Below the pieces are notes generated by a model. That model was not told the DNA's origin and searched no databases. It was given only the letters and a program-made list of their open reading frames with translations. Both the position numbers and the translations under genes were made by a program. Below are positions 306 to 15,708 of a stretch of DNA of 15,844 bases, in pieces. Origin of the DNA: Promethearchaeota archaeon (GTDB lineage Archaea > Asgardarchaeota > Sifarchaeia > Borrarchaeales > Borrarchaeaceae); contig JBHLOP010000019.1 in the NCBI GenBank assembly GCA_048940375.1, positions 1 to 15,844 of the forward strand, given 5' to 3'. Every line of letters starts with the position of its first letter. Within the stretch, counting starts at the first letter, position 1.

Positions 306-1877
306 TTAACCTAACTGTGCTTTAAGCTCTGCAATCTCCTTCTTCAGGCGTGCAACTAAATCTGAGTGCTTCTCCTCGGAAATTTTTCCATCAAGGAGTA
401 GATCATCTGCTTTTTCTATTCTCTCTTGACGTTCTTTGATCTCCTTTTTAATTTTACCTGCATCAGTAGATGTCGTTGGAACCGTTGATGGACCTGCGAC
501 AGGAACGACACCAGCTCCAGTGACAATTGTTGGTGACGCATCAATTGAGACACCTTTCTTACCTAGTTCGCGATATCCTTCAGCTTTTACAAGTTCTTCA
601 ACGCTTATACCCGCTTCTTTGGCTCTTAAATACAACTCTGTGTCAACACCTTTCATTGTAGCATACTTTTCAGCCTCTATTCTTGCAAGTGCTTCATCTT
701 CAGCAGTTGATGAAAGTGCTTCATATTTTGCTTTCATAGCTTCTAATTCTGCGAGTTTTAACTCCTTTTCTTTTTCAAGCATCGCAAGTTCTGTTTCAGA
801 ACTTATCATTTTCGCCTTGGCAGTTTTTTGTATAACTAATTCTTCGTATTCTTCGGCTCCAGCGATGGTTGCTATTTCAAGTCGCGCTAACTGGACTCCC
901 CAATCGCCAAATGTATTCTCCGCGATTACCTTTGCTTTAGTGGAAATACCTTCGCGATTTGAAAACACATCTTCTAATGGATAGGTGGATACTGTTTGAG
1001 TTACAATTCCTCTCATTGAGTCCTTTGCCCAGTTATCAAACTCATCAGGCGCTAATTTCTCTTTACCACCAATAAAGTTTTGAACAAGGCGTTTAGGGTC
1101 ACTAATTTTGATGTATGCAGTGCCTGAGGCACCGATCTTTACCTTATCTTGTGTATAAATACGTTTAGGAACTCCCCAAGGAATTTTATATTCGCGTGTA
1201 TTTACCCATACGATTTCAGTGCCAATTAGTGCACTGTAGAGTTTTCTTACATCCATTCCGCTGAAGATTTTGTGAATTATTCCTTTAGAATCCTCTTTCC
1301 TCCACGCTTTGTCCAGTTTCCCTGCAGCTTCTAATTCTTGTGCACGTGCTCTTGCTTTTTCTTCAATCTTTCTCTCTTCTTCTGGTATTAAATCATATAC
1401 CCCTGCGCTTAATTCTCCTATCAAAGTTCCCTGTTTATAAAACAATGCTTTTTCATACGATCGTACAACAAATCCTCGAATGGGCTCCTGAAGTCTCGCA
1501 TCATATCCACACTTCTTACAGAAAGCCTGACCTGCTTTTATTGTAGAAACTCGTTCGGTAGGTATATCTGCTCCACATTTTTTACAGAATTTTTGTCCTT
1601 TATTTGCAAGTGTTCCACATTGTGGACATTTCCTTGCTTCTGCTAGTTTTCTACATCCCGGGCAGTGCATATCATAAATTGGCGGAGCATTCATAATATC
1701 TTCATACGTAAGACGATGTATTATTCCAGGATAAACTTGGTGGTTCCAAATGTATGTATATCGATCTCTACCCCATTCTTTTTCAATTACCTCATCAGCG
1801 TCTAATCCTTTGTCTGCTACTCTTTTAAGATCCTTGTCTACTTTTCTAGTTCTAAACCATTCTTTAATCGATGACAT
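306..1877 (-). CDS. SPFH (band 7/stomatin-flotillin-like, YdjI-type) domain protein with an N-terminal zinc-ribbon array, a coiled coil and a short C-terminal helical tail
   Basis: 523-aa ORF. Zinc-ribbon cysteines HCPGC..KCPQCG..FCKKCG..FCKKCG. SPFH-like segment 'GTEIVWVNTREYKIPWGVPKRIYTQDKVKIGASGTAYIKISDPKRLVQNF...' followed by a Glu/Lys/Ala-rich coiled coil. C-terminal 'ADDLLLDGKISEEKHSDLVARLKKEIAELKAQ' resembles SHOCT-like tails. Confidence 0.8.
   Translation of the reverse strand: MSSIKEWFRTRKVDKDLKRVADKGLDADEVIEKEWGRDRYTYIWNHQVYPGIIHRLTYEDIMNAPPIYDMHCPGCRKLAEARKCPQCGTLANKGQKFCKKCGADIPTERVSTIKAGQAFCKKCGYDARLQEPIRGFVVRSYEKALFYKQGTLIGELSAGVYDLIPEEERKIEEKARARAQELEAAGKLDKAWRKEDSKGIIHKIFSGMDVRKLYSALIGTEIVWVNTREYKIPWGVPKRIYTQDKVKIGASGTAYIKISDPKRLVQNFIGGKEKLAPDEFDNWAKDSMRGIVTQTVSTYPLEDVFSNREGISTKAKVIAENTFGDWGVQLARLEIATIAGAEEYEELVIQKTAKAKMISSETELAMLEKEKELKLAELEAMKAKYEALSSTAEDEALARIEAEKYATMKGVDTELYLRAKEAGISVEELVKAEGYRELGKKGVSIDASPTIVTGAGVVPVAGPSTVPTTSTDAGKIKKEIKERQERIEKADDLLLDGKISEEKHSDLVARLKKEIAELKAQLG
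1506..1664 (-). other. Zinc-ribbon array (residues ~72-124) in the SPFH protein
   Basis: Four CxxC motifs (CPGC, CPQC, CKKC, CKKC) within about 53 residues, N-terminal to the SPFH-like segment. Confidence 0.8.
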
Positions 1878-1894
1878 TTCTCTCCATCCTCTCC

Positions 1895-2362
1895 TTATCC
1901 TTTATATAGGCTTGGCACATACCAAGCTGTGCCTCCCGCATAACTAGAATCACGTCGGGTAACTCCTTCTTGCTCAAGAGTTTGTAACGCTCGCATTACA
2001 CGTTCATTGTCCCATTGTGTTTTTATCATCAGATCTTCAAGGGAAATATATCCATTTGAGGTTGCAGCCAGCTCAAGTACTGTTCGTGAATCTTCTGTCA
2101 TGCCTACGGGCACAAATTCAACAAGTTTTAAGCCTGAAGGTTTCAATACATGCATATCAGCTATCATTCCAGCTTTATCTAATTTCTTAACTGCTTTTTC
2201 AATATCATTTACATTGAATTCTATGTCTAATCTACGTTCACGCATTTTCATGTAAAGATCTGCTAGCGAACAGATGCCTCCTGTTTCATTTTTGATCATA
2301 TCTTTGAGCTTAAGAATTTCTTCACCAAGTTTCTCATAATAGTCGCCTTTGCCAAAAATTCT
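1895..2362 (-). other. EAP30 domain segment (residues ~233-387, two winged helices)
   Basis: Collinear motif match to Vps22/SNF8 described for the parent CDS. Confidence 0.82.
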
Positions 2363-3058
2363 TGGCTTTTTCGCTTTTTCGTCTTCCATTGCTTTTCTAA
2401 CTTCTCTGACTTTGCCCTTCTCTCGATGTCTCATTTGCCATAATTTTTCGTCAAGTACTTCCTCGATGTTTTTGTATACGCCATGCCATTTGCCAGGAAC
2501 CCACTGATAGATGTGTTCGGCTTCTGTCACGCCCAACAGCAAATCTTGTCTCTTCTTGAAGAGACTCACAACATCATCCATATCACTTTTTATTTCCCGG
2601 AAGAACTTCTTTCCGTCTTCTGCATTTCCATCTTCTACCTTTGGAAGTACCGTTTCTCGTAATATTTCGTTCATTGCATCGATTTCAAATAAAGTAAGCA
2701 TATCTATTCCTACAAGATTTTTGAACATATCGGACTCCAACGTTACATCAAATTTTGTTGGGCCTCCAGCAGTTTTACTTTGTTTATGAAGTTTTTCGAC
2801 CTCAAAAATGGGAGCCATCAACTCAACGTCTTGTTGAAATCTGTTCAATTTCTTTCTTAATCTTTCGCCTAACTTTAATACATCATCATTACCTAAGTCT
2901 ACTGAAGCTTTCTGGATCTCTCCTAATAGCTCATCTGAGCTTTTTAAACTATTTAACATCTTTTCTTTTAAGACGCGATCATAGTTTTCTCGCATCTCCT
3001 TCCTCCAGCCAGGCTTAATCCATTTGAAATAATTCTTAATTTTTCTAAGCCTTTCCAT
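1895..3058 (-). CDS. ESCRT-II Vps22/SNF8-like protein: C-terminal EAP30 tandem winged-helix domain after a ~230-aa mostly helical N-terminal region
   Basis: The C-terminal 155 residues run 'FGKGDYYEKLGEEILKL...NETGGICSLADLYMKMRERR...VNDIEKAVKKLDKAG...LKLVEFVPVGMTEDSRTVLELAATSNGYISLEDLMIKTQWDNERVMRALQTLEQEGV...AWYVPSLY'. This follows the eukaryotic SNF8/EAP30 pattern, remembered as GVGDFYYELG..GG.ITLEEL..DDLIRAIKKL..VP.ELN.D.TVVL.LA..NGYVT..E....L.W..ERA...L..L..EGL...YW.P.LF. Motif recognition only. Confidence 0.86.
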   Translation of the reverse strand: MERLRKIKNYFKWIKPGWRKEMRENYDRVLKEKMLNSLKSSDELLGEIQKASVDLGNDDVLKLGERLRKKLNRFQQDVELMAPIFEVEKLHKQSKTAGGPTKFDVTLESDMFKNLVGIDMLTLFEIDAMNEILRETVLPKVEDGNAEDGKKFFREIKSDMDDVVSLFKKRQDLLLGVTEAEHIYQWVPGKWHGVYKNIEEVLDEKLWQMRHREKGKVREVRKAMEDEKAKKPRIFGKGDYYEKLGEEILKLKDMIKNETGGICSLADLYMKMRERRLDIEFNVNDIEKAVKKLDKAGMIADMHVLKPSGLKLVEFVPVGMTEDSRTVLELAATSNGYISLEDLMIKTQWDNERVMRALQTLEQEGVTRRDSSYAGGTAWYVPSLYKG

Positions 3059-3090
3059 AGGTCACACTCCTTTCTTTCATTTTTTTTAAT

Positions 3091-4575
3091 TTAAACCGAC
3101 TTTTGTCTTTCAAGTTTCATACTTAATGTGCTTCCACAAGTTGGACACTTGAATTTCTCAGGCCCTACCCAATCCACGCTTTCCTCGCTCAAAGGCGCAC
3201 CACATTCTGAACATGTGGTGGGAACGGTCTTTATTAGTATTACTTCTTCTTTCTTCTCGATAACTCTCTCCTTAATGATCATCTCAGTTGGCTTGGAATT
3301 ATTCCCTTCGGAAACTGCAGCGGCTGTAACTGGATCTACGATATCCATATATGCTCTACCAATCTCAATAGTAAGTGGCTCGCTGTAAATAGCAAGTTTT
3401 TGAGATTTAAAGATTTTCGGGGCATTAAAAAGAATCTCAGTAGGATTCAAGGAATATAATCCACCAATTGTTGGTGTAACTTTAAAATCAACAGCTCTAT
3501 ACGTTCCAGGACGAATTCTTTCTATGTGCTTCCCATTACCATTTCCCACTTCAAATTCAGACGGGAAATCTGTTTTGACCTCAATATTAGTAACTTCAAA
3601 ATCAGATTTATTACGAATATCTACCGAAATAAGCCCTTCGTGGTCAATATATAACGCCTTAGCTTCTCTATCTATCTCAATGTTAGGTAGAACGAACACA
3701 GGTGTAAGATTAACATCAGTAGATGTTGGTTGAAAATTCCCTGCAGTTATAGTTGCTTGTGCACGCATCGCAAACACACCAACTTCACCTGTTGGCAGCT
3801 CTAATTCTATCTCTTCAGTTTCATCTTTCCTTAATGAAACTGAAATATCTTCATTCAAAACAGGGAAGTGCAATTTCAACTCAGTAGGTAGTTTTGCTGT
3901 GATAGTCAATGTGAGCGGAATCTGATTACCGATTTTGACAGCTTCAACAGTTTCAACATTTATACTTGGCAAGACTCTCAAAATTGGGATCCCCATACGA
4001 TTGCATACCGGGCAACCGGTATTCACAAGATTTCTGTTGCATAATACTGGATGGGCTCCAGTTTGAATCAACTTCTTCTTATTCAGTTGATTGAAGATGT
4101 CGGCTAGGTTATCTTCAACGATTTTTGGTTTTGATTTTGAAGATTCCCACCCACAAGCTACACAAGTAACTTTATAATCAGGAGCAGCTGAATCAAAGAC
4201 GCCTCCTTTTTGAAATTGCGTGAGAACCAATTGCTTTCCACATTGGGGACACAATGAGTTTAATATAGTCTGACATTTAGCATTAGGTGGCGCTGATTGA
4301 AATCCTACCCCACAGGATGGACAGAATGAAATTTTTTTCGATGCACAATGTTTGCAAAACACGCCGTGTTCAGGACAGTAAAAATTAGCGAATTTACCGC
4401 AGTGTACACAAATATAATTTGCTAATTTTTCTTTTTTCTTTCCTTCTTCAATAAGTAGCATTGAAGCCCTTGTTGTTGGAGTTGGTTTAGAGAGAGAAAA
4501 TAGTGGTGAACCACAAAAAGTACAGAATCTTAGACCTTCTCTTAGTGTTCTTCTGCATCTAGGACATGCCGGCAA
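3091..4575 (-). CDS. Zinc-finger-rich protein: N-terminal double zinc ribbon and B-box-like cluster, central beta-sandwich (Ig/CARDB-like) region, C-terminal zinc ribbon
   Basis: 494-aa ORF with TTG start (caa at 4573-4575 on +) and a good Shine-Dalgarno GGAGGA (complement of tcctcc, 4584-4589). CPRC..CTFCG; 'CVHCGKFANFYCPEHGVFCKHCASKKISFCPSCG'; CPQC..CVAC; CPVC; C-terminal CSEC..CPTC. The middle region alternates hydrophobic beta strands ('QIPLTLTITAKLP..', 'GLISVDIRNKSDFEVTNIEVKTDFPSEFEV'). Confidence 0.75.
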   Translation of the reverse strand: MPACPRCRRTLREGLRFCTFCGSPLFSLSKPTPTTRASMLLIEEGKKKEKLANYICVHCGKFANFYCPEHGVFCKHCASKKISFCPSCGVGFQSAPPNAKCQTILNSLCPQCGKQLVLTQFQKGGVFDSAAPDYKVTCVACGWESSKSKPKIVEDNLADIFNQLNKKKLIQTGAHPVLCNRNLVNTGCPVCNRMGIPILRVLPSINVETVEAVKIGNQIPLTLTITAKLPTELKLHFPVLNEDISVSLRKDETEEIELELPTGEVGVFAMRAQATITAGNFQPTSTDVNLTPVFVLPNIEIDREAKALYIDHEGLISVDIRNKSDFEVTNIEVKTDFPSEFEVGNGNGKHIERIRPGTYRAVDFKVTPTIGGLYSLNPTEILFNAPKIFKSQKLAIYSEPLTIEIGRAYMDIVDPVTAAAVSEGNNSKPTEMIIKERVIEKKEEVILIKTVPTTCSECGAPLSEESVDWVGPEKFKCPTCGSTLSMKLERQKSV

Positions 4576-4583
4576 TTTTCTAG

Positions 4584-4589
4584 TCCTCC
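4584..4589 (-). promoter_or_regulatory. Shine-Dalgarno site for the 3091..4575 gene
   Basis: GGAGGA on the minus strand, 8 nt upstream of the TTG start. Confidence 0.7.
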
Positions 4590-5009: not shown

Positions 5010-7979
5010 ATGACAAAAATGGGAGTTTCATCGTACTTTTCAGGAAGAAAAATAATTGTATACATTATAACGGCGTTTGTCGCATGGTTTGCTTGGCTGG
5101 ATAATATCATTGACTACTTATATTTCCTCGGTCTCTACGCAGATACATGGCCTTACTACGATGTCTTCACTTTCCCCGACTTCGCATATAATGTCACGCT
5201 TGCACTACCGCTCATCGTTTTTGTAATGACGTTGTTGCCAGAAGCTGAAAAATGGAAAAATATTTTGCGTACCATGGGTATCATTGTACTAATTACTGCG
5301 TTGCTAATGTTAGTATCAACAATAAATCTTGTTCTTTACAGACCTTTCATTACGGCTATTGTTTTAATTGTCATTGCAGGGATATTCGCACTTCTTAATT
5401 ATCCACTTAAGGATAAGACCTTTTGGGAACATGAACCTTGGCAGTGGGCAGTTAATTGGTTCGCGTGTGGAGTTTTTTTTGCATTAATTGGCTTTCTGTT
5501 ACCTCCAGCTGTATTTACTGGATCCCTTGAATATCCAGTTCTTATAGGACCTTACGTCTGGGCTTTAGTGTTCGCTGTTGGCGGTATACTAGCCTTAATT
5601 CTCGGTTTCATCATGCCAGTTGAAACTGGGCTTGTTGAAGGCTTAATTGTTGGTCTGTTCGGTGCAATAGGTACGCTTCTCGGTTTGTGGCTATTTTTCT
5701 GGGATACGGAAGTTATACCTCCTGATGGATGGTACATTCAAATCTTAGTTCTATTCATAGTTTCTGGCTTTGCTGGCGGGTTCTTCAACCAGTTTAACTT
5801 CACAAAATATATCATGAATTCGTTTCAAGACTTTATCAAGATGAAACTAGTGTTAGCTCTATGGATCGTTGCATTACTTGGAGCACTCGTATCGTATTTT
5901 GCTATCGCCATCTATTTCCCAGGCGGTGTTCAAAACATAGTTTTACGTCAGGTGCTGATATTTCTCGTTCCGTCACTCATTGTAACACCCATAGCTTTTC
6001 GTAGCGCCCATTTCTGGCAAGGACTGCTCATTGGTATCACTACGAGCCTTTCATATTTCAGTGTAATCATTCAAGGCGATCCATCTCTTGAGATCATCGG
6101 ACTTATTGGCTTTCCATTTGTTCCATTAATTCGCTATGCACCTCCACAGATATCCATCTATGTGGTCAATGGTTTGCTACTCGTGTTAGCAGCACTGTGG
6201 GGTGGTCTATGGGGTTCAGTTGGAAACTACTTTACAATGGCATATACAGAGATTCCTGAGGAAGGAGATGTAGCAAAGAGATTCAGAACATCATATCTAT
6301 TTCGTGACCTATGGTCAAACTACTTCATTCATGGAAAAAATGTTGAGCCGGAATTTGAGAAGACTGAACAATTCAAGTTAGATTTGGATAAAATTTTAGA
6401 TATTGATTTTGATCTAAAACAGACTGACTTACCAAGATTCGGTGAATACGTTTCTTTTCGCTACATGGACAGAAGTAAGCACTGGGAGACGGTTCCAAAG
6501 CCTTTGAAAACGATTGGTGTCCAACCGATAGAGGACACAGACAAAGCTAGAGTTGAATACAATAATAAGCACATTGGAGACTTTTATGATCCAAAAGTTC
6601 TCGCTGACAAATATTCCCCTGTATGGAGTCCAATGAATCTAGTATTTCAGCGTACGCTAGTTACTGCGATGCGTCCAATCATTTATGTGCTCTTGGTTAT
6701 CACGTTGATACTTGTAGGCTATAGTATTTACGTTAATTTCACAGTAATTGGCGGTGGAATCGAATTTCTAGGACTTGCAGGTGCTCAGATAGTTGTTCTC
6801 ATCTTCTTATTCTTCTTTATGTTCAAGTGGTACGGTTTATTCGAACAAACAGTAAACGAGCGACCAGAAGCTTCATCAAGTTTCTTAATCGTTGCTTTAA
6901 TCATTGTAGTGATTATGCTATATATCACCTACACAGTGAACAGCCTTGGGACGTTCATTGTCACAGAGGCTAACGAAGACCTCATCAGATTCGAGACTAA
7001 CGGACTGTATATAATGCTTCTCATAAACTTTATCTTAGGCATAGGATCTGTTCAAGTACTCGGCTCGGAAAATATGAACCTCTATTGGTATGATAAGAGA
7101 CCAGAAGTTTTTCCAATGCAATCTCAAGAAGATGCGCCTGTTTGGCTTAAGGGGGACCAGTATTGGGTATTTAGGAACCTCTTCTGGTGGCCATTCGAGC
7201 TCACAGTTGGCAGTAAAGGACTTGAACACGAAGATTGGGAACGGATAGAACTGTGGGTGAATGCAAATACAGGCAAACCAGAGTGGATTATCTCAGATTA
7301 TCATTGGCGTGAGTTATGGTATAGGGTGCCAGAACTAGACGAAGAAATTATGATTAAGGTCACATTTGCAACGAACTTTCATACACCAATACCTTCAGTT
7401 CTCCGAAAGGCTACATACGACAAATTTGTAGCGCAATTCGAGGGTGCTGGTGCAGCGAGTGCGGTAATTAAATATGCAATTGGTGCAGCGAAATCAGGTA
7501 TCGGTCGAGCGTTTGACTCAATTGGCTCTTCTTTAGGACTAAAGACTAAGGGCGAAAAGGAGAGAGACGCAAAAACTACTGATGGAATGAAGGCTCGTAC
7601 AAAAGTGCTTGGGAAATATTTTGTTGACGTTGGAGGTCCAGCTAAAGGGATCTGTGGAAAACAAATGGCAGCAACAGACTTTAACTTCTTTAGATATCCC
7701 TATGGATGTGCAAGTACTAAGGATATCGGAACTGGTGGCGCAATAGACATTAAATACTATTATCGTGAAAAAGATTTTGTTCCACCGATCAAGGAACCTG
7801 GCACAGGATTCAATTTAAAAGCTGAGAAGAAAGACGGTCTTGGTTACAAAATTTCAGTAGACGAAACAGCCCCGCAACTGTGCATGGATTGTGGTGAACC
7901 GTATAATGTCATGGAAACTGTAATTTGCCCGGCTTGTGGCTCCAACAATGAAGCGGCGTATAGAATGCCAATCGAGTAA
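5010..7979 (+). CDS. Large multi-spanning membrane protein with two transmembrane blocks, soluble domains and a C-terminal zinc ribbon
   Basis: 989-aa ORF with many hydrophobic segments in the first ~390 aa and again between ~545 and 700 aa. C-terminal 'CMDCGEPYNVMETVICPACG'. Possible starts at 5010 or at the in-frame ATG 5019; GGAG at 5004-5007. Confidence 0.85.
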   Translation: MTKMGVSSYFSGRKIIVYIITAFVAWFAWLDNIIDYLYFLGLYADTWPYYDVFTFPDFAYNVTLALPLIVFVMTLLPEAEKWKNILRTMGIIVLITALLMLVSTINLVLYRPFITAIVLIVIAGIFALLNYPLKDKTFWEHEPWQWAVNWFACGVFFALIGFLLPPAVFTGSLEYPVLIGPYVWALVFAVGGILALILGFIMPVETGLVEGLIVGLFGAIGTLLGLWLFFWDTEVIPPDGWYIQILVLFIVSGFAGGFFNQFNFTKYIMNSFQDFIKMKLVLALWIVALLGALVSYFAIAIYFPGGVQNIVLRQVLIFLVPSLIVTPIAFRSAHFWQGLLIGITTSLSYFSVIIQGDPSLEIIGLIGFPFVPLIRYAPPQISIYVVNGLLLVLAALWGGLWGSVGNYFTMAYTEIPEEGDVAKRFRTSYLFRDLWSNYFIHGKNVEPEFEKTEQFKLDLDKILDIDFDLKQTDLPRFGEYVSFRYMDRSKHWETVPKPLKTIGVQPIEDTDKARVEYNNKHIGDFYDPKVLADKYSPVWSPMNLVFQRTLVTAMRPIIYVLLVITLILVGYSIYVNFTVIGGGIEFLGLAGAQIVVLIFLFFFMFKWYGLFEQTVNERPEASSSFLIVALIIVVIMLYITYTVNSLGTFIVTEANEDLIRFETNGLYIMLLINFILGIGSVQVLGSENMNLYWYDKRPEVFPMQSQEDAPVWLKGDQYWVFRNLFWWPFELTVGSKGLEHEDWERIELWVNANTGKPEWIISDYHWRELWYRVPELDEEIMIKVTFATNFHTPIPSVLRKATYDKFVAQFEGAGAASAVIKYAIGAAKSGIGRAFDSIGSSLGLKTKGEKERDAKTTDGMKARTKVLGKYFVDVGGPAKGICGKQMAATDFNFFRYPYGCASTKDIGTGGAIDIKYYYREKDFVPPIKEPGTGFNLKAEKKDGLGYKISVDETAPQLCMDCGEPYNVMETVICPACGSNNEAAYRMPIE
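7881..7940 (+). other. C-terminal zinc ribbon of the membrane protein
   Basis: C-x2-C-x13-C-x2-C (CMDCGEPYNVMETVICPAC). Confidence 0.75.
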
Positions 7980-7980
7980 A

Positions 7981-8007
7981 AGACTTTTTTTGTCTACTCT
8001 TTTTTTT
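7981..8007 (+). terminator. Poly-T terminator region after the membrane protein gene
   Basis: AGAC-TTTTTTT-GTCT mini-hairpin followed by a run of 8 T, directly after the stop codon. Archaeal transcription commonly terminates at T-runs. Confidence 0.5.
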
Positions 8008-8036
8008 ATTTTGAAAGAAAAGATGAAGGTTAAGAA

Positions 8037-8807
8037 ATGACTCAACTGCCTTGGATTATAGCTCACCGAGGAGCGTCAGGTTATTATCCAGAAAATACTC
8101 TTCCATCTTTCTTAGGAGCAGTTGAATTGGGTGCAACTTGTGTTGAAATGGACATTCAACCAACAGCGGATAAAAAATTGGTCTTATTCCACGATAATAC
8201 TATGGAACGTATTCTTGGTGTTCCAAAAAAGATCACTGACTTATCATGGCAAGAAGTTATCCAATATGATGTAGGTCGTTGGAAAGCCCCTAAGTGGGAG
8301 GGAACAAAGATTCCGCTTCTTAGGGACGTCTTGGAAAAACTTCCACGATCAATGAAATTGAATTTAGAGCTCAAATATTATTCTCCGAAGGATGATTGGT
8401 TTGAAGGATCAGTTCTTGAAGTTGCCTTGCAATATGATCTTCCAAATAGAGGTTATCTAGCTATTAAACATATTGAAACCATTTCCTTCATAAAAGAACT
8501 TGCTCCTGATTGTCCGTTGGGCTTATTACAGAAAAAAAGAACCCCAAAAGAAACATTCGATCTTTGCTGTAAGTGGGATCTTCCATTTGTTCAAATTAGA
8601 AAAACAGCGTTGACCAGTGAATGGATTGACCGATTTCATGAACAAGGTGTCAAAGTTAATTTCTTCTATTCTGACGATCCTAAGGAAATGAAACATCTTT
8701 TAAAAGATCTTAAAATTGACGGAATTCTAACGAATTATCCGGATAGGACAGTGAAAGTGTTCCAAGAGCTTGGCTTGCCCCTTACAAAACATCAAGATCC
8801 CACGTAA
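8037..8807 (+). CDS. Glycerophosphodiester phosphodiesterase (GDPD) family protein
   Basis: 'IAHRGASGYYPENTLPSFLGAVELGATCVEMDIQPTADKKLVLFHDNTMERI' is the canonical GDPD HR(G)..PENT..E.D....D...V..HD signature; 'GILTNYPDRTVK' near the C-terminus. Confidence 0.92.
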   Translation: MTQLPWIIAHRGASGYYPENTLPSFLGAVELGATCVEMDIQPTADKKLVLFHDNTMERILGVPKKITDLSWQEVIQYDVGRWKAPKWEGTKIPLLRDVLEKLPRSMKLNLELKYYSPKDDWFEGSVLEVALQYDLPNRGYLAIKHIETISFIKELAPDCPLGLLQKKRTPKETFDLCCKWDLPFVQIRKTALTSEWIDRFHEQGVKVNFFYSDDPKEMKHLLKDLKIDGILTNYPDRTVKVFQELGLPLTKHQDPT

Positions 8808-8931: not shown

Positions 8932-10296
8932 ATGGAAAAAATTCTTGCCTGCATTGATGGAGAACACTACTTGCCTGTCACGAAGGCAGCGATAGACAAG
9001 TTAAATGATTTGCCAAATCAAGAAGTCGTTGCCGCGTTATTTCTGGGAGGTACCGAGAAAATTGGAGATTTTGATGAAGTTAAACGCTATCTACAATTAC
9101 CAATTTATTTTCTTGATTATAAACAAAACTTTCACGAATTTTTACGAAAAATAATGAAGCAGGTCAAGATAAATTCTGTCTTCGATCTTAGTGATGAACC
9201 TGTAGTGACTTCTCAAGATCGAATGAATTTTGCGTGTGCCGCTTTATTTGAAGGATGTAGTTATAAAGGCGCAGACTTTCAATTTACTCCAATAGAATTT
9301 TTAGACGCTAAAAAACCTGTAATAAGTGTCATTGGTACAGGAAAGCGCGTTGGGAAAACGGCTGTTGCAGGTTACATCGCACGTGTTATTAAAGAAACGG
9401 AATGGACTCCTTGTATACTTACAATGGGTAGAGGAGGTCCAGAAAACCCTGAAGTGATCCGAGGTGACAAATTAATTATCGATGCAGAATCTCTTCTTAA
9501 AGTTGAACAACAAGGTAAACATGCTGCTAGTGATTATTGGGAAGATGCTCTTACTAGTCGAATCATTACAGTTGGTTGTAGAAGGTGCGCTGGAGGATTA
9601 GCTGGAACACCTTATTTAGATAATGTAAAAGAAGGCATCAAAATCGCTGAAAAATTATCTGTCGATTTAATCATTGCAGAAGGTAGTGGACCAACCATTC
9701 CACCAGTAATGGCACAGTCATTTATTATCATAATTGGTGCACAACAACCTCTTTCTAACGTCAAATACGTTTTGAATCCTTATAGAATAAAACTTTCCGA
9801 ACTTGCAATTATAACGAATTGCGAACTTCCCCTTGCAACTGATGATAAGATTCAAGAAATCTGCACCACTGTCAAAGCAATAAATCCGCAGATCAAGTTA
9901 TGTTGTACCAAGTTTCGCCCAAAAGTTTTAGGTGATATTCAGAATAAAACCGTGTTTTATGCAACAACAATGCCTATTGAAATGATGGAAATTGTAGTTA
10001 ACTATTTAGAGCAAAATTACAATTGTAATATAGTTGGAACAAGTGTTTATCTCTCAGATCGTGCAAAATTGAAGGAAGATCTCATGAAATTAGCTGATGC
10101 GGATGTTCTTTTGACAGAACTAAAGGCTGCAGCTGTTGATGTAGCGACTAAGACAGCTCTACAGATAGGAAAGCCAACCATCTATTGTGATAATATACTC
10201 CAAATAGTGGAGCATGTTTACGGAGAAATAAAATCGATTCAAGGACTTGATTCATATCTTATTGAGGTCGCAAATAGGATTGTAAAAGGTAGGTAA
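8932..10296 (+). CDS. cpgS: Cyclic 2,3-diphosphoglycerate synthetase
   Basis: 454 aa. 'MEKILACIDGEHYLPVTKAAIDKL...VVAALFLGGTEKIGD', P-loop 'VISVIGTGKRVGKTAVAGYIARVI', 'TMGRGGPENPEVI', 'LIIAEGSGPTIPPV'. Directly followed by 2-phosphoglycerate kinase, the enzyme that makes its substrate. Confidence 0.88.
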   Translation: MEKILACIDGEHYLPVTKAAIDKLNDLPNQEVVAALFLGGTEKIGDFDEVKRYLQLPIYFLDYKQNFHEFLRKIMKQVKINSVFDLSDEPVVTSQDRMNFACAALFEGCSYKGADFQFTPIEFLDAKKPVISVIGTGKRVGKTAVAGYIARVIKETEWTPCILTMGRGGPENPEVIRGDKLIIDAESLLKVEQQGKHAASDYWEDALTSRIITVGCRRCAGGLAGTPYLDNVKEGIKIAEKLSVDLIIAEGSGPTIPPVMAQSFIIIIGAQQPLSNVKYVLNPYRIKLSELAIITNCELPLATDDKIQEICTTVKAINPQIKLCCTKFRPKVLGDIQNKTVFYATTMPIEMMEIVVNYLEQNYNCNIVGTSVYLSDRAKLKEDLMKLADADVLLTELKAAAVDVATKTALQIGKPTIYCDNILQIVEHVYGEIKSIQGLDSYLIEVANRIVKGR

Positions 10297-10300
10297 AGAA

Positions 10301-11218
10301 ATGAGTTCAAAACATATAATGATCAAAACAGATACTTATGATTATCCTTATAGCAGGGGTTTATTAGCAACACGCATTATGGTAACTGGTCTCGACTTAG
10401 TTGACGCTTACAAAACAGCTGAAGCAATAGCTTTAGAACTGGAACTGCAGGGTATCTGGGAACTTACAGAAGTCGAACTTAATGATCTCGTTAGCGATAT
10501 TCTCGAAAAAGAGGGCAGAAAGCTTCATGCTGCTCGATATCGTAATTTTCTCAAATTTAAAAGTATGTATGAACCTCTGATCATTCTGATCGGTGGTGCT
10601 ACTGGCATTGGTAAGTCTACTATTGCATTGAATTTAGCAGCAAGACTAGCTATTAGCCACATAGTTGGAACGGATACAATCCGAGAAGTCATGCGCAAAG
10701 TATTATCTTCAGAATTGGTCCCTTCATTACATTCGTCCTCATATGCTGCTCACGAATCCATGAAAGAATATGTTAGTCCAATTTACAATAAGGTCGTTGT
10801 GGGATTTGAGGAACAAGCGCGACTCGTTGTTTCGGGAATCGAATCTGTAATTAGTCGTGCGTTAACCGAAGGTATAAGTATTATTGTTGATGGGGTTCAC
10901 ATCTTGCCTTCTATAATGGATCCAAAACTTCTCAAATCACCAAATATTATCCCAGTGTTTCTTCATCTTTCAAACAAGGAAGATCATATGATGAGATTTC
11001 ACGAGCGCGCAAAAACAAAGGTGATGAGAAAGCCACTTGAAGATTATTTAAGTCATTTTGATGGCATTCGAATAATACAGGAACATCTTTCAGAGCAGGC
11101 AAGACTGCATAACATCCCTTTAATTGAAAATATACTAATCGAAACCACCATTAGACAGATTTTGGACATCGTTTTTGAACGCATTGAAATGCTAATAACA
11201 AATCCCCTAACAACTTGA
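10301..11218 (+). CDS. pgk2: 2-phosphoglycerate kinase with N-terminal ATP-cone domain
   Basis: ATP-cone-like N-terminus 'YPYSRGLLATRIMVTGLDLVDAYKTAEAIALELE', Walker A 'IILIGGATGIGKSTIALNLAARL', 'GTDTIREVMRKVLSSELVPSLHSSSYAA', 'GISIIVDGVHILP'. Starts 4 nt after the upstream stop. Confidence 0.9.
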   Translation: MSSKHIMIKTDTYDYPYSRGLLATRIMVTGLDLVDAYKTAEAIALELELQGIWELTEVELNDLVSDILEKEGRKLHAARYRNFLKFKSMYEPLIILIGGATGIGKSTIALNLAARLAISHIVGTDTIREVMRKVLSSELVPSLHSSSYAAHESMKEYVSPIYNKVVVGFEEQARLVVSGIESVISRALTEGISIIVDGVHILPSIMDPKLLKSPNIIPVFLHLSNKEDHMMRFHERAKTKVMRKPLEDYLSHFDGIRIIQEHLSEQARLHNIPLIENILIETTIRQILDIVFERIEMLITNPLTT

Positions 11219-11249: not shown

Positions 11250-12785
11250 TTGGCAAGATTTGTCATTTTCTCAGACTCACATATTACCCATGGTCCAGAA
11301 TTTAATGAAAAAGCCTTTCGAAAAGGTTTAGATTTAATAAGTTCCATAAAGGCAGATTTCTATTTTCACTTAGGCGATATCGTTGAATCAGGAACTCTCG
11401 CAGACTACAAATTAGCTGAAGAACTCTTGCTACCTTTAAAAAACAAGATTTTTTTCATTCCTGGAAATCACGATGCCAGAAACGTAGGAGATCGCCTATA
11501 CGAGGAATTCTATGGAGAGAGGGAATTTGAAATCGAAACAAAAATCGATGGGTCTAAGTTTTATATTACAGGACTAGATAGCTCAATTCCTGATCAGAAT
11601 TCGGGTCGCATGGGGCGTCGAGAGTTACACGTACTTTCGAAAAACTTAAGCCAGTTGGATGATGATGTAATTAAAGTGGTATTTTTCCATCATCATCTTC
11701 TTCCCATCCCAAATACTGGCAGAGAACGTTCTACTATTGATGATGCAGGCGATACATTAAAGATTTTGCTTGCTTATGATGCGGATGTAGTAGTAAATGG
11801 TCATCGACATATTTCCAATGTGTATAGAGTTACAGATGGCGATCATGAGTTAATCACAATTAATAATGGGACCTTTTCGGCAAACAAGACACGATATCGT
11901 GAACTTCACTCCTTCTCAGTTATAGAGGCCACCCGTGAGCAAGTAATAACAAAAAGAATTCAAATTGATACAAACAAAGAAAAGATAACCAAGAAAAAGT
12001 ATCACTATTATCCCGCATTGCATTTTGGCGGCGAAAAACTCGCTCGAATAGTCCATATTTCAGATACACATTTTAGCAAGGGAAGTGAGTTTCAAGAGGA
12101 GACTTATGATAAGGCTGTGGAGTTAATCAATAGGAGTAGAGCGGACGTTGTAGTACATACTGGAGATGTTACAAATGACGCTTATCGATCCAGTTATAGA
12201 ATCGCTGCAGAGAAATTAGCAAAAATCACGTTACCAAAAGTAATTGTGCCAGGACATCGAGATTGCTACGCAATAGGTTGGGATCTCTTTCCAGAGCTTA
12301 TTGGCCCCCTTGATCCTGTATGGGAGTCACCTAACCTTAAAGTAATTGGAATTAATACCAGTTTGCTGGAAGAAGAAATCGGTTCAATGGGGAGATTCCA
12401 ATTACAAAATGTACTTGAAAAAATCTATGCAATAAAGGAACACAAAATTGTGGTTGTCGCTTTTCATCATCATCTCGTTCCAGTTCCTAATACAAAGCAT
12501 GTAGCTTCCCTAACTGATGCTGGTGATACTTTATCTGCACTAGGAAAAAGCGGAGTGGACTTAGTATTGACAGGGCATAAGCATGTCACTTGGTCCGTCC
12601 AAGTTGAAGATGCTGTCATTTCTAACTGTGGATCCCTGTCAAGTTCAAAAGTTCTCTCACTAACTGGCAATGTTTACAATATCATAGACGTATATGAGAA
12701 CGGATTTGTTCAAGTCGATGAAGTATCCCTTGACCAAGATACGCAACGAACTACAGGAAAATTTATGATTCCTGTCCTAAAATGA
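11250..12785 (+). CDS. Tandem-duplicated calcineurin-like metallophosphoesterase (two Icc/CpdA-like domains)
   Basis: TTG start at 11250 preceded by gaggga. Domain 1: FSDSH..GD..GNHD..HHH..GHRH. Domain 2: ISDTH..GD..GHRD..HHH..GHKH. The two halves align along their length. Confidence 0.88.
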   Translation: MARFVIFSDSHITHGPEFNEKAFRKGLDLISSIKADFYFHLGDIVESGTLADYKLAEELLLPLKNKIFFIPGNHDARNVGDRLYEEFYGEREFEIETKIDGSKFYITGLDSSIPDQNSGRMGRRELHVLSKNLSQLDDDVIKVVFFHHHLLPIPNTGRERSTIDDAGDTLKILLAYDADVVVNGHRHISNVYRVTDGDHELITINNGTFSANKTRYRELHSFSVIEATREQVITKRIQIDTNKEKITKKKYHYYPALHFGGEKLARIVHISDTHFSKGSEFQEETYDKAVELINRSRADVVVHTGDVTNDAYRSSYRIAAEKLAKITLPKVIVPGHRDCYAIGWDLFPELIGPLDPVWESPNLKVIGINTSLLEEEIGSMGRFQLQNVLEKIYAIKEHKIVVVAFHHHLVPVPNTKHVASLTDAGDTLSALGKSGVDLVLTGHKHVTWSVQVEDAVISNCGSLSSSKVLSLTGNVYNIIDVYENGFVQVDEVSLDQDTQRTTGKFMIPVLK

Positions 12786-12824: not shown

Positions 12825-14219
12825 TTATTTGTTTTCAAAAAAATCTGCAACTCTAATTTTTGGCGTCTCATAATTAGATAATTCTGCACCAATTGTTTCG
12901 AGTGCAACCGCACTAATATCCCATATGTTCAGTTTATTATTCTCCAAATATTTTTGGAGAATTTTCTTAATCCCTGACGGTTTGGTGAATTTATGTCCAT
13001 CAAAATGGGCAAAAAAAGTATATACGCTGGTACAACTCGGGGTCACTCCACCGTGATTAGCCTTTCTGTAGGTGATGTCATAGCCATATCCTTCATTAGC
13101 TGTTCCGATAACATGTCCAAATTTATCTCGATCATAACCAACATTTTTACCAAAGATTCTCTCTATTTCTTCATATTCAGGAGTAAAATGAACCCAGCGA
13201 TTTGCCTGCATCTTTTTAAGTCGATCAACAAGCTCACATATTTGTTTGTTACGTGTAAGTAATAAGTCTTCGTTAAACCATATTCTGAATCCTCTTCTCC
13301 CATCAGTTGCAATCGCATATTCTTTTTCAGAGAACCCCATTCTTTTTGCAAGTTCGTGAATAGTTGAAGAAATCGGGAATATATGAGGCGTATCAGAATT
13401 TCCATGATCGGTGGTAAGAATGAATAAAGTATCTTCTCCCATTGCAAATAATAGTTCTCTAACCTTTTCAATTGAATTTTTTAATATATCTGCTGCCGTT
13501 AATGATTTTGTACCATCTGTATGAATCGCTTTGTCGGGGCCACCAATTGTTCCTGTAATAACGCTCGGATTATATGTATTAATCAATTCTATGACCTTTT
13601 CGATGAGTACATCATCCATCTCACCGAATTTATCTACCCCTACGTGTTCTCCTCCGAAGATGCGTTGTCTGATTTTCTTGCGTCTTTCATTTAATTCGTC
13701 GAATGGCTCTCTCTTTCCGTTATGATAGATTCCAGAAGGGATTGCAATCTGGTGGAATGGTGAATTAGATGTAGATAAAGACCCATTATCCTTAGTCATT
13801 CGCATATACAGTTGAAGGGTACGTTGCCCTCCCTCATCGCCAGGATCTACGGTTTCCTTTGAAATACCTCCTTCTGAAATACCGCATCCTTTGTTTCCGA
13901 AGCCTAGTAATATCTCTCCTGCATCTTTTAAATCGTCAAAAACAGATCTATATTTCTTAAAAAGGTCTAAGGGGGGGTTTATTACTTTCATTTGCTTAAT
14001 ATCAACAAATCGGTTGCCTACTAGGTTCGTTTCAAATGGCGACAACCTATAACTAAAGGCTACGTGACCTGGTCTTGAGACTGAAAAAATATCTACAAGT
14101 GTGGGGACTTTAAACGCATTATCATCGATATAGTTAAGAAATCCCCCATTAGGAGAGTTAACAGCGGTTTCCCAGCAGTTAATAGCTAATCCATCAATGA
14201 TCACATAGCATAGTTTCAT
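12825..14219 (-). CDS. Alkaline-phosphatase-superfamily (phosphodiesterase / phosphoglycerate-mutase-like) hydrolase
   Basis: 'MKLCYVIIDGLA' start motif, '..DTLFILTTDHGNSD..', '..RKANHGGVTPSC..'. The ORF track extends to 14357, but ATG at 14219 removes the overlap with the upstream gene and has a GGAG just upstream on the minus strand. The first 46 aa of the track ORF look non-native. Confidence 0.62.
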   Translation of the reverse strand: MKLCYVIIDGLAINCWETAVNSPNGGFLNYIDDNAFKVPTLVDIFSVSRPGHVAFSYRLSPFETNLVGNRFVDIKQMKVINPPLDLFKKYRSVFDDLKDAGEILLGFGNKGCGISEGGISKETVDPGDEGGQRTLQLYMRMTKDNGSLSTSNSPFHQIAIPSGIYHNGKREPFDELNERRKKIRQRIFGGEHVGVDKFGEMDDVLIEKVIELINTYNPSVITGTIGGPDKAIHTDGTKSLTAADILKNSIEKVRELLFAMGEDTLFILTTDHGNSDTPHIFPISSTIHELAKRMGFSEKEYAIATDGRRGFRIWFNEDLLLTRNKQICELVDRLKKMQANRWVHFTPEYEEIERIFGKNVGYDRDKFGHVIGTANEGYGYDITYRKANHGGVTPSCTSVYTFFAHFDGHKFTKPSGIKKILQKYLENNKLNIWDISAVALETIGAELSNYETPKIRVADFFENK

Positions 14220-14304
14220 AATATTCTCCAGTATACAAAACAGTATTGCTAAATATTTATCCCTTTCGTCAATTACATAGAAAAAATAAGGGGAAAATAC
14301 CCTG

Positions 14305-15708
14305 TTATCCGCGTAAACTGTGAAATGGGGCGGGTGTACGTCCTCCTCTTTTAACAAAGGTATCTGATCGGTAAGGTTTTGTATTGAGAACTGGAGCTTT
14401 CCCCATCAAACCACCAAACTCTATCATTTCGCCACCATAACTTTTTGGTACCGGAATAATCCGGACACCTGCTGGCTTGTCATTGGCAATAGCTATTGCG
14501 ATTTGATCTGCGATGATTGCTGAAATCGTTTCTTTGCTTGTGTCTCCTGGTATTAGCACCATATCGATCCCCAGTGCACACACACTGCTCATAGCATGAA
14601 GCGTTGTAATATCGATTGCACCTCTTTTTGCTGCCTCTGACATACCCTGATCCTCCATAACTGGGATAAAAACACCCGAAAGTCCTCCTACATAACTACT
14701 GGCCATCGCACCGCCTTTTTTCAGGGCATCAGCGAGAATAGCAAGCGCTGCTATCGATCCATGACCTCCGCATTCTTCTAGCCCCATTGCCTGTATAATC
14801 TCTGCAACTGAGCCTCCATTTGGATCAGGGGCTAAACTGATATCTACTGCACCAAACTCAATCCCTAGCGCTTTTGCGATTTGTCTGCCAATTAGCTCAC
14901 CGGCACGTGTCACTTTAAAAGTAGCAGCCTTGATTTCATCGGCCAATTTCCCAATATCTGCGTGTTCACCAATTTCTTGTATTGCTGCTTTGATCACGCC
15001 AGGTCCGCTAATTCCGATAACAACTGTTGCGTCAGGTCCACCTGGACTGGCAAACGCTCCAGGCATAAAAGGAGTATCTTCCATAGCATTTGCTAAGACA
15101 ATGAATTTTGCACACCCAATTCCGTTAGATGTTTTTTGAGAGACGTTTAGGATGATTTCACCCATTTTAGCAATTGCATCAAAGTTGATTCCAGCATGAG
15201 TTGTCGCCACATTTACAAAACCGCAAACAGTATCAGTTTTACTCATCACTTCTGGCAGAGATTCAATAAGGATAGTATCCGCCTTCATAAAACCTCTATG
15301 AACAAATGTAGAATAGCCTCCTACATAATCAACACCTGATTCCTTGGCAATTCTGTCTAATGAGGATGCTATCTTAAAGGCAACATTGATACCCTCATTT
15401 ATTTCTAAATCTTCAACCATAGGTCCCAATAACTGTGCGATAGGTGTAACTGCTAATCTTTTATTAACGATAGGTACACCAAACCTTTCTTCAATTTGAG
15501 TAATTTCATCAATAAAGCGCTTAATAAAAGGGGGCATATGTGTTTCCATAAGCGATATTGTAATATCTGGATCCTCGCGGGCGTATTTTTGGATGTTCAT
15601 TGCTAAGGTTGTTGCACGTATGTTTAAATTTTCGAGCCAGAACATTCTTACAGTGTCTAAAATCTCGCTTGGTGATAACAATAATGGCATTATTTTTTCA
15701 CTCCTCAC
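14305..15708 (-). CDS. UPF0210 / PFL (DUF711) family protein
   Basis: 'LSPSEILDTVRMFWLENLNIRATTLAMNI', 'GVDYVGGYSTFVHRGFMKADTILIESLPEVMSKTDTVCGFVNVATTHAGINFDAI', 'FMPGAFASPGGPDATVVIGISGPGVI', 'EECGGHGSIAALAILADALKKGGAMASS'. Confidence 0.92.
   Translation of the reverse strand: MRSEKIMPLLLSPSEILDTVRMFWLENLNIRATTLAMNIQKYAREDPDITISLMETHMPPFIKRFIDEITQIEERFGVPIVNKRLAVTPIAQLLGPMVEDLEINEGINVAFKIASSLDRIAKESGVDYVGGYSTFVHRGFMKADTILIESLPEVMSKTDTVCGFVNVATTHAGINFDAIAKMGEIILNVSQKTSNGIGCAKFIVLANAMEDTPFMPGAFASPGGPDATVVIGISGPGVIKAAIQEIGEHADIGKLADEIKAATFKVTRAGELIGRQIAKALGIEFGAVDISLAPDPNGGSVAEIIQAMGLEECGGHGSIAALAILADALKKGGAMASSYVGGLSGVFIPVMEDQGMSEAAKRGAIDITTLHAMSSVCALGIDMVLIPGDTSKETISAIIADQIAIAIANDKPAGVRIIPVPKSYGGEMIEFGGLMGKAPVLNTKPYRSDTFVKRGGRTPAPFHSLRG

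Follow-up and report, generated by a model that had tools for sequence, protein, structure and literature searches.

The Vps22/EAP30-like gene at positions 1895..3058 on the minus strand of a 15,844-nucleotide (nt) stretch of DNA from a Promethearchaeota archaeon (contig JBHLOP010000019.1, assembly GCA_048940375.1; the whole stretch is referred to as the window) is confirmed to encode a genuine member of the EAP30/Vps22 family. We consider it fairly probable that its product is a Vps22/SNF8-type subunit of the endosomal sorting complex ESCRT-II, with an N-terminal extension that serves as an adaptor coupling ESCRT-II to SPFH and zinc-ribbon partners encoded in the same operon. The gene is complete in the open reading frame (ORF) listing, running from an ATG start to a TAA stop (1895-1897) and encoding 387 amino acids (aa). 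NCBI holds the exact protein as MFX1465245.1 under the name 'hypothetical protein [Promethearchaeota archaeon]', as foreseen in an earlier note, made from the letters of the window, that described the gene as easy to annotate as hypothetical.

The family assignment comes from the C-terminal part of the protein. A profile search matched residues 228-370 of the 387-aa protein to Pfam EAP30 (PF04157, E = 5.4e-16, 59.4 bits where the gathering cut-off is 26.8), covering positions 79-218 of the 219 in the profile, and revealed no other Pfam family at E <= 0.01. In a phmmer search of all Protein Data Bank (PDB) chains, the top match is human SNF8/Vps22 (3cuq_A, E = 5.4e-16, and 2zme_A, E ~5e-16; query residues 233-385), followed by yeast Vps22 (1u5t_A, E = 8.8e-6). 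Identity with these eukaryotic proteins is 20-24%. No Vps36 chain was returned at E <= 1, whereas canonical Asgard Vps22s do give sequence matches to Vps36. The earlier note had claimed a match to SNF8/Vps22 across both C-terminal winged helices, including a GDYYEKLG lead-in and a terminal W-Y-x-P-S-L segment. The searches bear this out, and both motifs are found in the phmmer alignment with human Vps22, where GkGDYYEKLG of the query is paired with GvGDFYYELG and the terminal aWYvPSLy with hYWlPALf. The winged-helix core scores 62 bits against human SNF8, compared to 48 and 34 bits for two Asgard Vps22s encoded within ESCRT gene clusters.

Structure prediction with AlphaFold2 (AF2) agrees with the sequence searches. 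A first run on an alignment of eight sequences gave a mean predicted local distance difference test score (pLDDT) of 52, too poor for use. A profile search enlarged the family to 45 proteins, and a second run on a 43-sequence alignment yielded a model that is reliable in its C-terminal half only, with residues 237-387 at pLDDT 85-91 and folded into two helix-strand winged-helix units. The first winged helix (WH1), together with its GDYYEKLG lead-in helix, occupies residues 233-318 (2105..2362, minus strand; EAP30 match, pLDDT 74-91) and is modelled with helices at 237-249, 252-259, 265-274 and 283-295 and strands at 262-264, 301-305 and 310-314. The second (WH2), with the terminal WYvPSLY, occupies residues 319-387 (1898..2104, minus strand; pLDDT 85-91, aligned with 1u5t_A and 3cuq_A). 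When the PDB was searched with Foldseek, ESCRT-II stalk subunits took the best five positions, with three Vps22 and two Vps36 chains at E-values from 2e-9 to 2e-4 (human Vps22, 2e-9; yeast Vps22, 3e-7; human Vps36, 8e-6 and 2e-4). The alignments with Vps22 extend over 209-216 columns, and the model upstream of WH1 has pLDDT below 57. Winged-helix proteins of the MarR, ArsR, Fur and SelB types were matched only at E > 0.05-0.1 and over one winged helix. By both phmmer and Foldseek, the 387-aa protein is closer to Vps22 than to Vps36.

A residue at the Vps25 interface of ESCRT-II is also retained. In ESCRT-II crystal structures, Asp214 of yeast Vps22 forms a salt bridge with Arg83 of Vps25 (PMC539351). 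Alignment to 1u5t_A places yeast D214 over D370 in WH2 of the archaeal protein. D370 is kept in 32/43 family sequences, including every Borrarchaeal one, and is conserved in both the Borrarchaeal and the Jord/Freyarchaeal families. The ratio of nonsynonymous to synonymous substitution rates (dN/dS) in the winged-helix core is 0.06-0.09.

The closest genome loci belong to Ca. Borrarchaeum weybense, Ca. Borrarchaeum yapensis and one Borrarchaeota metagenome-assembled genome (MAG), with 85-92% protein identity over the full length, placing the window in the Asgard archaea as the earlier note had proposed on the strength of this gene. Orthologues in Borrarchaeal MAGs are 386 aa long (85-93% identity), and the sequence cluster of the protein includes members assigned to Ca. 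Borrarchaeum sp. (WP_287587870.1) or to Sifarchaeia. Among the ~27 members listed for this cluster, a length of 386-387 aa is nearly universal, the exceptions being three shorter entries of 227, 339 and 178 aa, one of which bears the mark partial. Every other relative found is 238-244 aa. These short proteins include a Jordarchaeal/Freyarchaeal family of 244 aa, with ~40% identity over the winged-helix core and several members named 'EAP30/Vps36 family vacuolar-sorting protein' at NCBI, and a second family of 238 aa with 34% identity. A Jordarchaeal gene of the first family (P0006, locus L004) is preceded by genes for a UEV/Vps23-core protein and for Vps28, and a gene of the 238-aa family (P0067, locus L005) adjoins Vps25, Vps4 and Snf7. 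Two further genes of the Jordarchaeal locus (6920-7438 and 7532-8230), just upstream of the UEV-Vps23/Vps28/EAP30 genes, encode a small GTPase of the Arf/Ras-like type and a protein of 232 aa that faintly matches a zinc ribbon.

Upstream of the winged helices, the protein departs from its canonical relatives, with ~130-150 additional N-terminal residues compared to Asgard Vps22s of 238-244 aa. Residues 1-128 (2675..3058, minus strand) form a lineage-specific extension. At its start is a basic, aromatic segment (MERLRKIKNYFKWIKPGWRKEMR; by calculation, the first 25 residues have a net charge of +6, and Trp, Phe and Tyr are abundant among them), after which comes a predicted helical hairpin. Both AF2 runs predict this hairpin to be long, with helices at ~18-55 and ~58-96, and place further helices at ~120-142, ~147-175 and 194-230, so that the region appears all-helical, at low confidence throughout (pLDDT < 57). 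When residues 1-232 were searched exhaustively with phmmer against 1.84 billion representative proteins, the only match outside the cluster of the protein itself was a spurious one to an acidic repeat protein of 2040 aa, which we discounted as a relative. Searches of the N-terminal region against Pfam (E <= 0.1) and, at relaxed thresholds, against PDB sequences gave nothing credible, and neither Cys motifs nor a PH or zinc-finger signature was found in it.

The extension is real coding sequence, as dN/dS for residues 1-150 is 0.08-0.15, ORF length is steady in almost all cluster members, and a Shine-Dalgarno-like AGGAG (3067..3071, minus strand) lies 8 nt before the ATG, inside the 32-nt gap that follows the stop codon of the upstream gene. 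A mis-called start codon was considered as the source of the additional residues and rejected on these same grounds. The dN/dS values place the extension under purifying selection.

Residues 129-232 (2363..2674, minus strand; dN/dS 0.03-0.06) form a helical region with a 15-residue insertion, LGVTEAEHIYQWVPG. BLASTP against the canonical 244-aa Asgard Vps22 P0043 aligned query residues 155-384 with residues 27-242 (E = 5e-31), with the insertion as a 15-residue gap. Profile-profile comparison of the Borrarchaeal and the short canonical families with hhalign aligned residues 230-385 with 90-243 (probability 99.7%, 38% identity) and returned no alignment upstream of residue 230. The pairwise alignment weakly suggests that residues ~155-232 are homologous to the N-terminal helical domain of canonical Asgard Vps22. 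Because the profile alignment begins at residue 230 and the BLASTP alignment at residue 155, we count residues 1 to ~128-150 as the extra part.

A Trp-rich motif occurs twice in the N-terminal region, as FKWIKPGW at residues 11-18 (3004-3027, minus strand) and as YQWVPGKW at residues 184-191 (2485-2508, minus strand), the latter inside the 15-residue insertion, and a similar helix (xxNxxxVLxEK) follows each copy. Comparison of residues 1-128 with residues 129-232 gave a marginal BLASTP E-value of 0.02 and a Smith-Waterman score of 46, against 31.6 +/- 5.9 for shuffled sequences, 60/2000 of which reached the observed score. We place no reliance on this marginal similarity, which might stem from a duplication of part of the protein or from a motif, present twice, that binds membranes or partners.

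The EAP30 gene is the middle one of three tightly spaced minus-strand genes separated by gaps of 32 and 17 nt, each preceded by a Shine-Dalgarno-like motif. The tight spacing and the motifs suggest co-expression of the EAP30 gene with its neighbours. The upstream gene (3091..4575, minus strand) begins at a TTG, with a GGAGG (4585-4589, minus strand) 9 nt before it, and encodes a 494-aa multi-zinc-ribbon protein with a beta-rich centre. Of the ten CxxC motifs in this protein, eight fall within residues 4-191, where they make up a double zinc ribbon and additional ribbons, and the other two are at the C-terminus; the protein matches Pfam DZR (E = 1.4e-9). The matches of its beta-rich centre to Ig-like Pfam families are weak and fall under the cut-off (TRAP_beta, E = 0.0006-0.002; NPCBM_assoc, E = 0.001-0.003).

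The downstream gene (306..1877, minus strand) starts 17 nt past the EAP30 stop codon. Two GGAG motifs (1891-1894 and 1882-1885, minus strand) lie at the junction of the two genes. The downstream gene encodes a 523-aa protein that combines two zinc ribbons, an SPFH/Band 7 domain and a C-terminal tail. The ribbons comprise four CxxC motifs in residues 72-123 (Pfam Zn_Ribbon_1/Zn_ribbon_3; Zn_ribbon_3 E = 8e-9). The SPFH/Band 7 domain lies at residues 137-371 (Pfam Band_7, E = 3.9e-17), with matches to stomatin in the PDB at E ~0.002. The Lys/Glu-rich, repetitive tail looks by eye like a coiled coil. Hydropathy analysis revealed no transmembrane segments in any of the three operon proteins. The SPFH protein has neither a transmembrane nor a hairpin anchor (maximum Kyte-Doolittle value over 19 residues, KD19, of 1.3). 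In stomatin- and HflK-type proteins the membrane anchor is usually N-terminal, and it is at this position that the ~130 N-terminal residues of the SPFH protein carry the two zinc ribbons.

The three-gene unit is present in every Borrarchaeal locus covered by the analysis, with the same genes in L001 (Ca. Borrarchaeum weybense), L002 and L003 and in the contig that encodes P0001. To look for distant versions of the operon, we used the SPFH neighbour in a protein search and an SPFH alignment in a metagenome scan, and both returned close relatives only (82-96% identity). The neighbours of the EAP30 gene are the genes for the DZR protein, the SPFH protein, a membrane protein, a GDPD protein, and ribosomal proteins and eIF6, and the downstream flank in Ca. 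B. weybense is a ribosomal-protein/eIF6/prefoldin cluster. No ESCRT genes were found elsewhere in the window or in the 10-kb flanks of the Ca. B. weybense locus. Divergent from the operon, across an AT-rich spacer of 434 nt, lies a plus-strand gene (5010..7979) for a predicted membrane protein of 989 aa. Some windows of 19 residues in it are strongly hydrophobic, reaching a KD of 2.8, its C-terminus carries a zinc ribbon (CMDC and CPAC at residues 958 and 973), and it belongs to no Pfam or NCBIfam family. As this protein also has a zinc ribbon, all three neighbours of the EAP30 gene carry ribbons of the DZR type. The position and orientation of the 989-aa gene are unchanged in the Ca. B. weybense locus and the P0001 contig, and its product may be associated with the EAP30 operon, an assignment we regard as uncertain.

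These observations are consistent with a scheme in which the EAP30 gene would be co-transcribed with the zinc-ribbon and SPFH genes and its product would link ESCRT-II to both partners. The C-terminal 155 residues would provide the tandem winged-helix core of an ESCRT-II stalk. By analogy with the yeast, human and Heimdall/Loki complexes, WH2 would dock a Vps25-like subunit through Asp370, and Vps25 would then nucleate ESCRT-III on the membrane, as in established ESCRT-II biology. Helix H0 of eukaryotic Vps22 is basic and membrane-binding, as known from human ESCRT-II work, and the basic aromatic N-terminus of the archaeal protein might aid membrane binding in a similar way. With its long helical hairpin, the protein could form dimers or dock onto the two partners encoded in the operon. 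ESCRT-II and ESCRT-III would thereby be recruited to membrane patches organised by the SPFH protein. The binding of Vps25 and of membranes and any interaction with the SPFH or zinc-ribbon proteins are inferred. Vps4 and UEV-Vps23 are encoded in Borrarchaeota, and the lineage therefore possesses ESCRT machinery that acts downstream.

Several observations weigh against this adaptor reading. The Vps25 partner in Borrarchaeum is presumed by analogy, and in Borrarchaeum genes for Vps25, Vps4, ESCRT-III, Vps23 and Vps28 are absent from ~10 kb on either side of the EAP30 gene. All loci with the three-gene unit come from one narrow clade (85-96% identity), and its conservation is therefore weak evidence of functional linkage. 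The model of the N-terminal region has pLDDT below 57, and the hairpin is therefore tentative, as is any likeness to the steadiness-box-like helical hairpin that Makarova et al. 2024 (PMC10936438) describe as fused to the 'EAP30/Vps22 family' (cog.002769). For the 494-aa neighbour, the Ig-like assignment depends on sub-threshold Pfam matches. A stronger form of the adaptor reading is put forward only tentatively, and we hold it to be rather doubtful: a dedicated Borrarchaeial ESCRT-II/SPFH module, in which the extension would dock onto the zinc-ribbon-SPFH-coiled-coil protein as a soluble scaffold and onto the multi-zinc-ribbon protein as an adaptor that is possibly Ig-like, and would direct membrane remodelling by ESCRT-III to SPFH microdomains.

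It is possible that the protein is simply the sole Vps22 orthologue of Borrarchaeia, acting in the usual ubiquitin-ESCRT pathway alongside Vps23, Vps28 and Vps25 from genes at other sites, in which case the extension would be an elaborated helical or steadiness-box region and the neighbouring genes a coincidence. Asgard genomes carry a single Vps22/36-like gene, nearer to Vps22 than to Vps36 (Hatano et al. 2022, PMC9192718), and Asgard ESCRT genes are not always clustered. Also in favour of a sole orthologue, the winged-helix core is highly SNF8-like, and no second EAP30 protein labelled Borrarchaeum was found in a profile search of 5.8 billion proteins, a collection that includes RefSeq-named Borrarchaeum entries, the search being limited by its word index and not a genome scan. 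Coincidental neighbours fit less well with the gaps of 32 and 17 nt and the Shine-Dalgarno-like motifs, which point to co-expression, or with the zinc-ribbon-SPFH-coiled-coil protein, which is of a type already tied to archaeal ESCRT loci.

A quite improbable alternative is that the protein is a diverged paralogue outside the ESCRT pathway, with winged helices that would serve as a scaffold for an SPFH/zinc-ribbon assembly (for example, in the regulation of a membrane-microdomain or protease complex) and would not recruit ESCRT-III. The distance of the locus from all ESCRT genes, the unique N-terminus and the missing Vps36 match, unlike canonical Asgard Vps22s, would all fit such a paralogue. 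However, the core is more SNF8-like than those canonical proteins, the protein keeps both the Asp at the Vps25 contact and a YWxPxL-like motif at its end, and winged-helix dN/dS is low. Even less credit, next to none, is due to an ordinary coiled-coil and winged-helix DNA-binding transcription factor with a superficial likeness to EAP30. Winged-helix domains are frequent among archaeal regulators, and a weak precomputed label, PF09339 (HTH_IclR), is attached to some of the short relatives, but the sole Pfam match is EAP30, far over its cut-off, the MarR/ArsR/Fur-type matches lie at E > 0.1 over one winged helix against 2e-9 across the whole Vps22 chain, and close homologues lie inside canonical ESCRT clusters. 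The Pfam, PDB phmmer and Foldseek results effectively refute the transcription-factor identity, and on neither of the points that the earlier note had named as able to overturn its claim, a profile search without a significant EAP30 hit or a model closer to transcription factors than to ESCRT-II, did the outcome go against it.

Asgard Vps22 homologues have already been described, partly biochemically (PMC9192718, PMC10936438), in line with the earlier note's remark that ESCRT-II homologues are known from Asgard archaea, and an ESCRT-II protein in an Asgard archaeon is therefore not new. The elements that are potentially new are the N-terminal extension and the SPFH/zinc-ribbon operon only, and the protein is an unannotated variant that differs in architecture and is perhaps specialised. 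Asgard homologues of ESCRT-I and ESCRT-II are central to the debate on the origin of eukaryotic membrane trafficking, and a further question is how archaeal ESCRT-II is recruited to membranes and cargo without Vps36 and ESCRT-0. If the adaptor reading is true, an N-terminal adaptor and its coupling to SPFH and zinc-ribbon proteins would offer a concrete, testable recruitment route, and the connection between ESCRT and SPFH, which has been noted to date in loci of Methanobacteriales only, would reach the Asgard archaea. If the stronger form holds, the dedicated module would be an Asgard counterpart of ESCRT-0/flotillin-type clustering of cargo and would provide the first true EAP30 protein genetically coupled to SPFH. 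If the protein is no more than the Vps22 orthologue of its lineage, enlarged by a helix bundle, it is a routine addition to a well-catalogued family. As NCBI/RefSeq label the protein hypothetical, Borrarchaeal genomes may score as lacking ESCRT-II in annotation-based surveys.

Elsewhere in the window, two adjacent plus-strand genes (8932-10296 and 10301-11218) concern a different subject. An orthologue of the first matches Pfam PF27272 CpgS_N, the N-terminal domain of cyclic 2,3-diphosphoglycerate synthetase, and the second matches 2-phosphoglycerate kinase (NF003259, E = 1e-94) at 317 bits, just under the 343-bit cut-off. Judging from these matches, the two products together would yield the thermoprotectant cyclic 2,3-diphosphoglycerate, a compound found mainly in hyperthermophilic methanogens and unexpected in an Asgard MAG of 38% GC. 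The kinase gene is directly followed by a plus-strand gene (11250-12785) for a 511-aa protein with tandem calcineurin-like metallophosphoesterase domains (Metallophos, E = 7e-30, two stretches). Two minus-strand ORFs, 12825-14357 and 14305-15708, encode phosphodiesterase/metalloenzyme-superfamily and DUF711/PRK05313 proteins, respectively, and have 53 nt in common. For the former (510 aa), the listed TTG start is probably too far upstream. tRNA and Rfam scans revealed no RNA genes in the window.

Compared to eukaryotic Vps22/SNF8 (3CUQ/2ZME chain A and 1U5T chain A), the archaeal protein has the same order of a helical region followed by tandem winged helices, the same two motifs and the same Asp, and differs in being ~130-150 residues longer at the N-terminus. 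Eukaryotic ESCRT-II includes Vps36 as a partner, whereas no Vps36 partner is known in Asgard archaea, for which homodimers have been proposed instead; the Vps22/36-like proteins of Heimdall- and Lokiarchaeota are reported to form them (PMC9192718). Eukaryotic Vps36, the second-best structural match, has a paralogous tandem winged-helix core and likewise a large N-terminal addition. In Vps36 it consists of a GLUE/PH domain, which may be accompanied by NZF fingers, and binds membrane and partners, whereas the Borrarchaeal addition is predicted to be all-helical.

The canonical Asgard Vps22s (cog.002769; P0006 and P0067) belong to the same phylum and are homologous to the Borrarchaeal protein over residues 230-385 and, by BLASTP, collinear with it from residue ~155. 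They are 238-244 aa long, lack both the N-terminal extension and the 15-residue insertion, and are encoded beside UEV-Vps23/Vps28 or Vps25/Vps4/Snf7, in contrast to the 387-aa protein in its SPFH/zinc-ribbon operon; the Vps22/36-like gene of Asgard genomes usually lies near Vps25, ESCRT-III and Vps4 (PMC9192718). Several of the canonical proteins are named EAP30/Vps36, whereas the Borrarchaeal one is called hypothetical.

The nearest parallel to the operon is found in the euryarchaeal Meth_adaptin and Halo_adaptin loci (PMC10936438). These loci are anchored on Vps4 and ESCRT-III, neither of which is found within 10 kb of the Borrarchaeal locus, and their double winged-helix proteins, unlike the Borrarchaeal protein, are not bona fide EAP30 members. 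As in the Borrarchaeal operon, however, they bring together genes for an SPFH protein and for a double winged-helix protein that has a helical domain at its N-terminus. ESCRT loci of Methanobacteriales encode SPFH proteins with zinc-ribbon and coiled-coil domains and adaptin-appendage proteins with zinc-ribbon and Ig-like regions (PMC10936438). The first of these is matched by the Borrarchaeal gene at 306-1877, and the second may have a parallel in the 494-aa neighbour, with its clear ribbons and sub-threshold Ig-like matches. From such loci, Makarova et al. 2024 proposed an ancient connection between ESCRT and SPFH proteins (PMC10936438), to which the Borrarchaeal operon would add a locus with a true EAP30 protein.

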